Shown piece after piece: positions 1,343-11,049 of a DNA stretch of 64,000 nucleotides. Numbering within the stretch: position 1 is the first letter of the stretch; each line of letters opens with the position of its first letter. A program made the translations under genes and the position numbers. Source of the stretch: Isurus oxyrinchus (Eukaryota); contig JANJGN010000034.1 in NCBI GenBank assembly GCA_026770705.1, positions 4,340,001 through 4,404,000 on the forward strand, in the 5' to 3' direction. The notes under the pieces are model-generated. The model saw only the letters and a list, made by a program, of their open reading frames with translations. It was not told the origin of the DNA and did no database searches.

Positions 1343-1357
1343 GCATTGTAGAATTAT
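1343..1357 (+). repeat. Left target-site duplication of the palindromic PLE (GCATTGTAGAATTAT)
   Basis: Identical 15-mer at 2747-2761, directly after the right arm. Confidence 0.9.
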
Positions 1358-1454
1358 AAAAACAAAGAGAACTGCGGATGCTGGAAATGCAAAACAAAAA
1401 CAGAATTACCTGGAAAAACTCAGCAGGTCTGGCAGCATCGGCGGAGAAGAAAAG

Positions 1455-1493
1455 AGTTGACGTTTCGAGTCTTCATGACCCTTCGACAGAACT
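1455..1493 (-). ncRNA. Minimal type I hammerhead ribozyme-like motif in PLE pLTR
   Basis: AGUU-CUGUCGA-A-GGGUC(AUGAA)GACUC-GAAAC-GUC-AACU: stem I AGUU/AACU, stem II GGGUC/GACUC, palindromic minimal stem III ACGU, GUC site. The core has U at the normally conserved A6. Confidence 0.7.
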
Positions 1494-1889
1494 TGATTTC
1501 GAGTCCAGGAAAGAGTTGAAATATAAGTTGGTTTAAGGTGTGTGTGGGGGGGGGGGGGGGGGGGCGCGGAGAGAGAGAGAGAGACAGAGGTGCTTGTGTA
1601 GACAAACAAGCAGTGATAGAAGCAGATCATCAAAAGATGTCAGTGACAATGGGACAAAAGAACACATAGGTGTTAAAGTTAAAGTTGGTGATATTATCTA
1701 AACGAATGTGCTAATTAAGAATGGATGGTAGGGCACTCAAGGTACAGCTCTAGTGGGGGTGGGGGGAGCATAAAAGATTTTAAAATATTTAAAAATAAGT
1801 GGGAAAAGAAAAATCTGTAAAATTTATAGGGAAAAAAAAGGGGAAAAAAAGGGGGGAAACAGAAAGGGGGTGGGGATGGGGGAGGGAGC

Positions 1890-2100
1890 TCACGACCTAA
1901 AGTTATTGAATTCAATATTCAGACCGGAAGGCTGTAAGGTGCCTAGTCGGAAGATGAGGTGTTGTTCCTCCAGTTTGCGTTGGGCTTCACTGGAACAATG
2001 CAGTAAGCCAAGGACAGACATGTGGGCAAGAGAGCAGGGTGGAGTGTTAAAATGGCAAGCGACAGGGAGGTTTGGGTCATTCTTGCGGACAGACCGCAAG
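1890..2100 (-). pseudogene. PLE GIY-YIG endonuclease C-terminal fragment (left arm)
   Basis: Translates LRSVRKNDPNLPVACHFNTPPCSLAHMSVLGLLHCSSEAQRKLEEQHLIFRLGTLQPSGLNIEFNNFRS*. The VAxHF, RxxxExxxI and PxGLN motifs are typical of the PLE GIY-YIG end. Confidence 0.85.
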
Positions 2101-2292
2101 AATGACCCAAACCTCCCTGTCGCTTGCCATTTTAACACTCCACCCTGCTCTCTTGCCCACATGTCTGTCCTTGGCTTACTGCATTGTTCCAGTGAAGCCC
2201 AACGCAAACTGGAGGAACAACACCTCATCTTCCGACTAGGCACCTTACAGCCTTCTGGTCTGAATATTGAATTCAATAACTTTAGGTCGTGA
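2094..2292 (+). pseudogene. PLE GIY-YIG endonuclease C-terminal fragment (right arm)
   Basis: Mirror copy of the left-arm fragment; stop at 2290-2292. Confidence 0.85.
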
Positions 2293-2695: not shown

Positions 2696-2734
2696 AGTTC
2701 TGTCGAAGGGTCATGAAGACTCGAAACGTCAACT
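2696..2734 (+). ncRNA. Minimal type I hammerhead ribozyme-like motif in PLE pLTR (right arm)
   Basis: agttctgtcgaagggtcatgaagactcgaaacgtcaact; same fold as 1455-1493. Confidence 0.7.
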
Positions 2735-2746
2735 CTTTTCTTCTCC

Positions 2747-2761
2747 GCATTGTAGAATTAT
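2747..2761 (+). repeat. Right target-site duplication of the palindromic PLE
   Basis: Identical to 1343-1357; the first GC also matches the element (microhomology). Confidence 0.9.
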
Positions 2762-9772: not shown

Positions 9773-10333
9773 TAAAAACAAAAAACAAAAACAAAAACAG
9801 AATTAGCTGGAAAAACTCAGCAGGTCTGGCAACATCAGCGGAGAAGAAAACAGTTGACGTTTCGAGTCCTCATGACCCTTCGACAGAACTTGAGTTCGAG
9901 TCCATGAAAGAGTTGAAATATAAGCTGGTTTAAGGTGTGTGCGTGGGGGGCAGAGAGAGAGAGAGAGAGAGAAGTGGAGAGGGTTGGTGTGGTTGTAGGG
10001 ACAAACAAGCAGTGTTAGAAGCAGATCATCAAAAGATGTCAACAACAATAGAACAAAAGAACACATAGGTGTTAAAGTTAAAGTTGGTGATATTATCTAA
10101 ACGAATGTGCTAATTAAGAATGGATGGCAGGGCACTCAATGTATAGCTCTAGTGGGGGTCGGAAGAAAATAAAATATTTTATTTTTTTAAAAAAATAATG
10201 GAAATAGGAGGGAAAAGGAAAATCTATATAATTTATTGGGAAAAAAAGGGAGGGGGAAACAGAAGGGGGTGGGGATGGGGGACGGAGCTCACGACCTAAA
10301 GTTGTTGAATTCAATATTCAGTCCGGAAGGCTG
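9773..10333 (-). mobile_element. 5'-truncated Penelope-like element copy, same family as 1358-2746
   Basis: Colinear with about 1395-1935 and carries the last GIY-YIG codons (LQPSGLNIEFNNFRS). Flanked by direct repeat TAATATCTGGA at 9762-9772 and 10334-10344. Confidence 0.9.
9852..9890 (-). ncRNA. Minimal hammerhead ribozyme-like motif in second PLE copy
   Basis: AGUU-CUGUCGA-A-GGGUC(AUGAG)GACUC-GAAACGUC-AACU; differs from the first copy only in the stem II loop. Confidence 0.7.
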
Positions 10334-11049
10334 TAATATCTGGAAACAGCTGGAGAGGACACCGAAAACAAACTTCATGATCGCTGTTGGAACAAACGAT
10401 ATGACTATGTACAGAGAGCTTGTTCTGCTGAAAAAAATAATAAACAAAAGGAGTTAGGTGCTATATTGAATAACATGATTTCGGGCCTCATTAGCACCGG
10501 TTCATTACTGTTTGCATCTCCCAATTGTCAAAGGAGCAGACAAAGCATGACAATTATCATGTAGCTAAAGTGTTAATGGGAAATAGCTTTTTTTTTATGC
10601 AACACCATTAATAGTTCTTAGGCTGTACATTTCCGCACCTATGAGCTAGGCATCATGTGAAATGGGTTGGAACAGGTGCGCATGTGACACGTAAAGTGGG
10701 AACTCTCAAGGTCTTGGAAAGAGCATGATTGTTGCGGCTGTAGAGTGTATTGGGTTTGTCTATAATACACATAAGCAGAACAAGTGTAAACAATACATGC
10801 AAGGGCAACACCGTAAGTAATGATATTAGAGCGGGAATGGATGACATCGAATTACAGAATAGTCTCGAAACGAAGATTACACATAAAATGGGATAAAACG
10901 CTTCAAAAGTGAGTTGGCATCTCTGTACAACGTTCATAATGTAGCAGGGGAGCTGTGTCCAATCAAACATTTGTAGGAAACTGGCTTCATACTGAGGATT
11001 GAGTTTTGCCAAACTTTTTGTGCTGTTAGAAACGATAGCCATACGAGCA

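Follow-up and report, generated by a model that had tools for sequence, protein, structure and literature searches.

A palindrome in the Isurus oxyrinchus genome turns back on itself exactly at a small hairpin. How was this mirror-image insertion made: by one cDNA that folded back on its own 3' end, as the original prediction had it, or by two cDNAs that met there? The palindrome lies in the window, i.e., the 64,000-nucleotide stretch of DNA analysed here. Positions 1358–2748 are confirmed as a 5'-truncated, head-to-head insertion of a Penelope-like retrotransposon within a single 15-bp target duplication. The palindrome consists of two 3' parts of the same element whose 5' ends meet at the centre, and the arms (1441–2088 and 2094–2748) are 98.5% identical. 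We refer to this insertion (locus L069) as the index copy. The direct repeat GCATTGTAGAATTAT is found at 1343–1357 and 2747–2761, with a 2-nt overlap at both ends, AT at 1356–1357 on the tail side and GC at 2747–2748 on the right. The features are as follows, where A and B denote the short and the long end site of the family.

1343–1357, plus strand: left target-site duplication GCATTGTAGAATTAT, 15 bp; its last 2 nt (AT, minus strand) match the native continuation of the element
1358–2098, minus strand: left arm, a 3' part of the element that ends at the long site B and includes both strands of the stem together with its native loop, TCTGT
1358–1390, minus strand: 33-nt "tail" between the fixed end sites A and B (end-site histogram), as in the available text of PMC11167929, PMC8557442 and PMC3846280
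1391–1440, minus strand: 50 nt absent from the index right arm and present in most partner arms (end-site histogram)
1455–1493, minus strand: minimal hammerhead-like motif, mirror of 2696–2734, read from the sequence
1890–2093, minus strand: C-terminal coding remnant of a GIY-YIG endonuclease (SVRKND...NNFRS-stop), matching the end of the 926-aa ORF of L036
2084–2098, unstranded: junction micro-hairpin TGCGG-ACAGA-CCGCA, native, a 5-bp inverted microhomology with a 5-nt loop
2094–2748, plus strand: right arm, the same 3' part in sense, which stops 83 nt short of site B
2095–2292, plus strand: second copy of the GIY-YIG C-terminal coding remnant (translation)
2696–2734, plus strand: minimal hammerhead-like motif AGTT CTGTCGA A GGGTC-ATGAA-GACTC GAAA C GTC AACT, read from the sequence
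2747–2761, plus strand: right target-site duplication, whose first 2 nt (GC) belong to the arm end too

The two arms differ in length by 83 nt, of which 33 nt are the tail, while a further 50 nt are missing in the index copy. The right arm ends at reference position 645, where the mode of such partner arms is 690–696, and it belongs with the shortest such arms, 10 of the 187 stopping at position 654 or earlier. We regard the extra length of the left arm as mainly the known tail, since the tail lies between two start sites of the reverse transcriptase (RT) in the available text of PMC11167929. The index copy belongs to a young subfamily that has an intact-ORF copy. A C/T difference between its arms was considered as a trace of two templates and rejected, given CpG decay and the mixed states in other palindromes; the poly-C variant of its right arm was not found in the other loci of that subfamily listed. 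An older simple copy of the same family (86%) is also present in the window, at 9788–10336 on the minus strand; it ends at site A and has an 11-bp duplication, TAATATCTGGA.

The element is a Penelope-like retrotransposon. A single 926-aa ORF in L036 contains a reverse transcriptase domain (RVT_1, 32.8 bits, above the cut-off of 29.6) and, at residues 829–863, a GIY-YIG match (PF01541, E 4e-4) that at 21 bits lies below the cut-off of 22.6; the motif VYC...LYIGET is visible in this ORF. The 65-aa GIY-YIG remnant at 2095..2292, searched alone, gave no Pfam match. Other features of Penelope elements are the inverted 5'-truncated copies with a 30–40-nt tail on one side and the partial-tandem organisation with pseudo-LTRs, seen in L032, L033 and L036; the family sequence carries the same 900 nt (98.7%) in direct orientation at either end. 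Going by its domain order, the element probably belongs to the Poseidon clade, and it presumably resembles elements of cartilaginous fishes. The fold at 2696–2734 reads by eye as a minimal hammerhead-like motif with one core change and is a candidate ribozyme. An Rfam search gave no hammerhead match for it; the Rfam matches were microRNA models only, below their gathering scores, and are a by-product of the palindrome. The hammerhead-like core (2700–2706) and its mirror read CTGTCGA in the young subfamily, with T where the consensus has A, and in hammerhead cores this A is generally invariant. Many tiny palindromes are centred at reference 587–617, just upstream of this motif (L028, L034, L043, L046, L048 and L051), and may mark the transcript start. 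At L041:3951 a full-length copy starts 9 nt before site B of its upstream repeat and overlaps its duplication by 4 nt.

The turn point of the index copy, positions 2081–2101, reads TCTTGCGG ACAGA CCGCAAGA. The minus strand translates through the centre as LRSVRKND and the plus strand as RTDRK, just as first described. The window's L codon, TTG, is however taken from the mirrored arm, the native codon being CTG. The predicted presence of the hairpin in the element itself is borne out by copies that read through this point. These comprise 30 loci fetched out of 40 hits scored, all 100% identical to 2094–2290. Since 28 of the 30 contain CACC-TGCGG-TCTGT-CCGCA-AG (the exceptions are CGCGG in L010 and TGCAG in L012), the palindrome turns at a hairpin, with a stem of 5 bp and a loop of 5 nt, that the element itself possesses. 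As single-stranded DNA it would fold with −5.2 kcal/mol, which ranks second in stability among the 251 stems of the element (at least 4 bp, spanning up to about 35 nt). Pairing between two strands at the index junction is possible at 12 of its 15 positions, as read from the letters.

Turn points in the family were searched genome-wide as an anchor plus its mirror with a gap of at most 40 nt, and compared with a null of uniform blunt joining within each search window; the search windows beyond the index site were chosen after the hairpins had been ranked. Inversion points do cluster on short native hairpins, as the original prediction required. Pooled over five search windows (151 loci, 121 with clean and 30 with complex junctions), 29 clean junctions lie on stems of at least 4 bp with loops of at least 3 nt, where 3.6 are expected. 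Around the index site the TGCGG product is found in 8 of 34 loci, excluding the index copy and one duplicate, against a null share of 1.3%. The top-ranked hairpin is used in 7 of 50 loci and an 8-bp stem in 3 of 24, while three nested stems account for 21 of 50 among the loci listed (of 103; a by-eye count, null share 4.8%), i.e., stable hairpins with 8–12-nt loops are heavily used. A search window lacking a stable hairpin gave five loci, none recurrent, against 24–103 in the others, a comparison with one control window and unequally conserved anchors. In a wider search window, with 48 of 56 loci parsed, at least 4 bp were found in 4 of 21 clean junctions (1.2% expected).

Hairpins are only part of the pattern. 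A 2-bp pairing with a loop shorter than 3 nt occurs in 19 of the 121 clean junctions (2.3 expected; TA centres four times); a single strand cannot fold that tightly. A perfect 14-bp palindrome whose hairpin is weak (−0.6 kcal/mol) is no less of a hot spot than TGCGG (7/28 clean, 8/38 by eye). Where homology is 0–1 bp, 31 of 46 junctions lie within 10 nt of symmetry (19.7 expected). By permutation, near-symmetric centres number 6 of 24 against 0.74 (p 1e-4), although sampling may favour these loci by a factor of up to two. The near-symmetric excess thus shows that the two arms are coupled. Additional bases are present at the 30 complex junctions (e.g., L109, L125, L225 and L250), several of them copied from neighbouring parts of the element, as might be left by repair through repeated short priming.

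The outer ends of the palindromes are as regular as their centres. Sites A and B are about 33 nt apart and fixed across the family. Both ends could be resolved in 191 of the 212 loci selected by junction, and they pair as A with B in 140, as B with an end upstream of A in 46, as B with an intermediate end in one, as B with B in three and as A with a short end in one. Exactly one arm thus ends at B, the tail end, in 187 of 191 palindromes; in 140 of these 187 the partner arm ends at A (688–700) and in 46 its end varies upstream, with an overlap of at least 2 nt in 38/133 and 16/42, respectively. A duplication of at least 8 bp is found in 175 of the 187, and it measures 13–15 bp in 133 of these, so that, as described for L1, two opposite cDNAs lie within one duplication. 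Simple copies without an inverted arm (n = 12) end at A in 11 cases and at B in one, and 10 of the 11 have a duplication at the 5' end or close to it; A thus acts like a place where priming starts. Having the tail on one side only follows from the two fixed end sites and holds throughout the family. It had earlier been put down to fill-in followed by joining through a GC microhomology. The GC at 2747–2748 is indeed part of both arm and duplication, but as an account of the longer left tail neither the fill-in nor the GC join is supported.

The relation between the arms is best seen in copies picked regardless of their 5' structure, namely 40 hits matching 2094–2290 and sorted by eye. Fifteen have no inverted arm, six are near-symmetric, 18 are lopsided by more than 100 nt and one was left unassigned; inverted copies make up 24 of the 40. 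In 10 of the lopsided copies the tail-less arm extends more than 100 nt further 5', in five the opposite is true, and in three one end is outside the locus. Each arm of these 10 copies contains sequence missing from the other, hence neither was copied from the other, and they are not fill-in products because a fill-in arm cannot hold sequence absent from its template. A second arm wholly contained in the first cDNA is thus not what the family has, although the index copy is compatible with it. Some long tail-less arms, which must be cDNA, end short (681–687 in L035, L044 and L050), so a short end is no mark of fill-in. Subfamily alleles are common to both arms in nearly all of 129 pairs. In L003, a lopsided copy with the longer arm on the tail side, the arms differ at six linked subfamily sites, pointing to two RNAs; L116 and L118, with 4–5 linked subfamily differences between arms, are together with L003 candidates for two RNAs at one target.

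The original prediction also tied the asymmetric loop to the tail. At hairpin junctions the loop is found on the tail arm 12 times and on the other arm 15 times (p 0.70), which does not bear this out. At the 19 sites with the index junction it is on the tail arm in 11 and on the tail-less arm in eight (five read from one resolved arm), and of 21 short-ended copies 13 have it on the short arm. We give little weight to these counts because the orientation of small loops changes, either after insertion or during assembly. L068 (G000:C30:9748675) and L071 (C405:222226) are identical over 3,023 nt except for one base and a flipped 5-nt loop; they are the same insertion assembled twice, and the flip is either a real micro-inversion or a polishing artefact. 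Loop orientation was consequently downgraded as a decisive test, and the 12 to 15 split may have been scrambled after insertion or by polishing of the assembly. L099 and L106, with the loop ACAGT, show a mixture of both orientations. L061 and L070 are a second duplicated site, with 33 differences, most within the palindrome and few in the flanks.

The exact 23-nt index junction occurs 21 times, whereas the reversed control occurs 0 times. The 21 occurrences correspond to about 19 sites, as two pairs have common flanks, and the duplications differ among sites. Eighteen copies were placed in a tree; they are scattered over several subfamilies (AU p 6e-9 against a clade), and the index junction therefore arose repeatedly. 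One master palindrome spreading as a unit was rejected on the same grounds, the absence of a clade and the differing duplications.

We suggest, with a probability of about one half, that the index insertion was made by twin priming and that the two cDNAs were joined through the native 5-bp match. Judging from the duplications, staggered nicks about 14 nt apart would leave two 3' overhangs. One cut end would prime at the long site B (1358) and the other normally at A, though in the index copy at a point 50 nt upstream of it, where the GC may have helped. The two cDNAs, usually of the same RNA or source, would stop near each other, as the near-symmetric excess suggests; the 3' CCGCA of one would then pair with TGCGG of the other, and each would template the second strand of the other. 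That a cDNA 3' end paired its CCGCA with TGCGG, as proposed from the start, is very likely; the partner strand, however, need not be its own. The index hairpin is in that case the best available microhomology and not proof of fold-back. The one-B pairing, the duplications of 13–15 bp, the simple copies ending at A, the lopsided copies, the two-subfamily arms of L003, the lack of a link between loop and tail, the tight 2-bp junctions, the hot 14-bp palindrome and the near-symmetric blunt junctions all fit, as does the cutting and extension of both strands in the anole element. Against this, hairpin use and the near-empty hairpin-poor search window fit snap-back equally well, the index copy has a non-canonical right end and a loop on its tail arm, as the original prediction requires, and common alleles of the arms are also predicted by fill-in. 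Pairing within and between strands yields an identical junction sequence; the index junction alone proves nothing, and element and layout are ordinary. More tentatively, and with somewhat less than even odds, double priming could be routine in this family. An RT dimer would use both target ends to begin two cDNAs on one RNA, at points 33 nt apart, both would run off together, and their self-complementary 3' ends would pair, each priming on the other, which would make inverted copies a main integration route (24/40).

A different reading keeps twin priming and lets either cDNA snap back on its own hairpin, after which the new sense strand would anneal to the other cDNA and bridge the gap. It draws on hot spots that track single-strand hairpin stability (8/34, 7/50, 3/24 and, among the loci listed, 21/50), on the heavy use of stems with 10–12-nt loops and the nearly empty hairpin-poor search window, and on R2, where such junctions are documented in the available text of PMC11204384; near-symmetry (6/24 against 0.74) would be explained without cDNAs stopping together. 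It leaves out, however, the 19 junctions of 2 bp with a loop shorter than 3 nt as well as the near-symmetric blunt junctions, and an equally stable 6-bp stem that lies 20 nt upstream but is used in 0 of 28 clean junctions does not fit. We find this reading possible but rather unlikely, and rank twin priming with microhomology joining above it because one mechanism then covers all junction classes. The original prediction needed one priming event only, i.e., target-primed reverse transcription from 1357, snap-back, fill-in to 1441 and a GC join. As a history of the family it is not supported, in view of the single B end in 187 of 191 palindromes and of the 10 lopsided copies with a longer tail-less arm, impossible by fill-in. 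The partner arms also end mostly at the fixed site A, and loops on the tail-less arm (8/19) and on the short arm (13/21) argue in the same direction, both counts being weakened by flips. For the index copy the native hairpin, the loop on the tail arm, the alleles common to both arms and a right end that misses the usual site by 50 nt, a non-canonical position with a 2-nt overlap, do agree with a single-priming history, which is nevertheless less likely; we consider this account improbable.

Two further accounts place the turn after or before integration. A larger palindrome could have lost its middle through slippage or break repair between matching 5-mers of its arms, which would result in the same junction sequence. 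Centres may indeed change, as the loop flip between L068 and L071 indicates, and 30 of 151 junctions are complex. On the other hand many near-symmetric copies have no arm differences at the compared sites (arm-to-arm conversion could hide age), the index copy belongs to a young subfamily with an intact-ORF copy, and 18 lopsided copies remain untrimmed, which makes such trimming very improbable. Alternatively, an antisense transcript could self-prime on the hairpin, and the endonuclease could resolve and integrate the intermediate so that a tail is left on one side. This was proposed by Arkhipova 2013 and Craig 2021, from palindromes at inverted junctions (PMC3846280, PMC8557442, in their available parts), and fits the hairpin preference. 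However, the arms of L003 come from two subfamilies, some loops are too small to fold, simple copies end at A, and RT was later found to initiate in vitro at both tail borders (PMC11167929, available text). We give self-priming of an antisense transcript hardly any credence.

Twin priming of the kind suggested here can be compared with published systems as far as the available text of the cited papers goes. Inverted truncated copies and a one-sided tail are described for Penelope-like elements in PMC8557442 and PMC3846280, and PMC3846280 inferred self-priming, on an antisense template, from palindromes at inverted junctions. Pen2/Pen2a of Adineta vaga (PMC3846280) shares with the shark family the head-to-head truncated copy, the 30–40-nt tail at one end, the one duplication and the palindromes at the inverted junction, read there as self-priming. 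In the shark family, unlike Pen2/Pen2a, turn points anywhere along the body were counted against a null, and the A/B end pairing, like the pairings too tight for a hairpin, speaks for two primed cDNAs rather than for self-priming by an antisense RNA. The anole element PAc, a Poseidon of Anolis carolinensis (Frangieh 2024, PMC11167929), is comparable; it has an RT, a C-terminal GIY-YIG and a tail downstream of a hammerhead. Both strands were cut and extended in vitro, and two RT start sites bound the tail. Second-strand synthesis and inverted copies are left unexplained in the accessible parts of that paper and are addressed by the shark family. Minimal hammerheads in repeats of Penelope-like elements, including opposite-strand pairs, are described in PMC4209133.

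In twin and dual priming of L1 (PMC2837659, available part), both nicked strands prime and inverted cDNAs lie in one duplication, and microhomology at the inner junction may occur there too. The non-overlapping fragments with an internal deletion of L1 twin priming are, however, not what the shark family has; the same 3' region is duplicated in its arms because both cDNAs would start from fixed sites close to the 3' end, and most arms share their source, unlike two unrelated RNAs. In the snap-back junctions of R2 (PMC11204384) and the small-hairpin inverted duplications at L1 sites (bioRxiv 2024.12.14.628481), a short hairpin lets a DNA 3' end prime and copy itself before it joins the target. 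Both result from a single priming event, and a fixed second end is not mentioned in the available text, whereas the second end of the shark family is mostly fixed and can carry sequence missing from the loop-bearing arm. Among the papers searched by title and start of abstract, mostly outside the subscription literature, none applied twin priming to Penelope elements and none counted Penelope junctions against hairpins. The inverted, tailed layout and the idea of self-priming are thus already in print, and the twin-priming model with its hairpin rule is a probable answer to the mirror-image copies.

The value of this answer is a testable model for a known and unexplained layout. The accessible text of PMC8557442 names the origin of Penelope inverted repeats as an open question, and that of PMC11167929 leaves the steps after priming unvalidated. 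The shark family is a large natural data set, and its predictions (A and B ends in pairs, nicks staggered by 14 bp and junctions that can be foreseen from self-complementarity) are suited to the existing in vitro system. If true, routine double priming would solve second-strand synthesis in Penelope elements, and turn points would be predictable from sequence alone. The shark family also shows how near-perfect palindromes of kilobase length are supplied steadily to a genome of vertebrate size.
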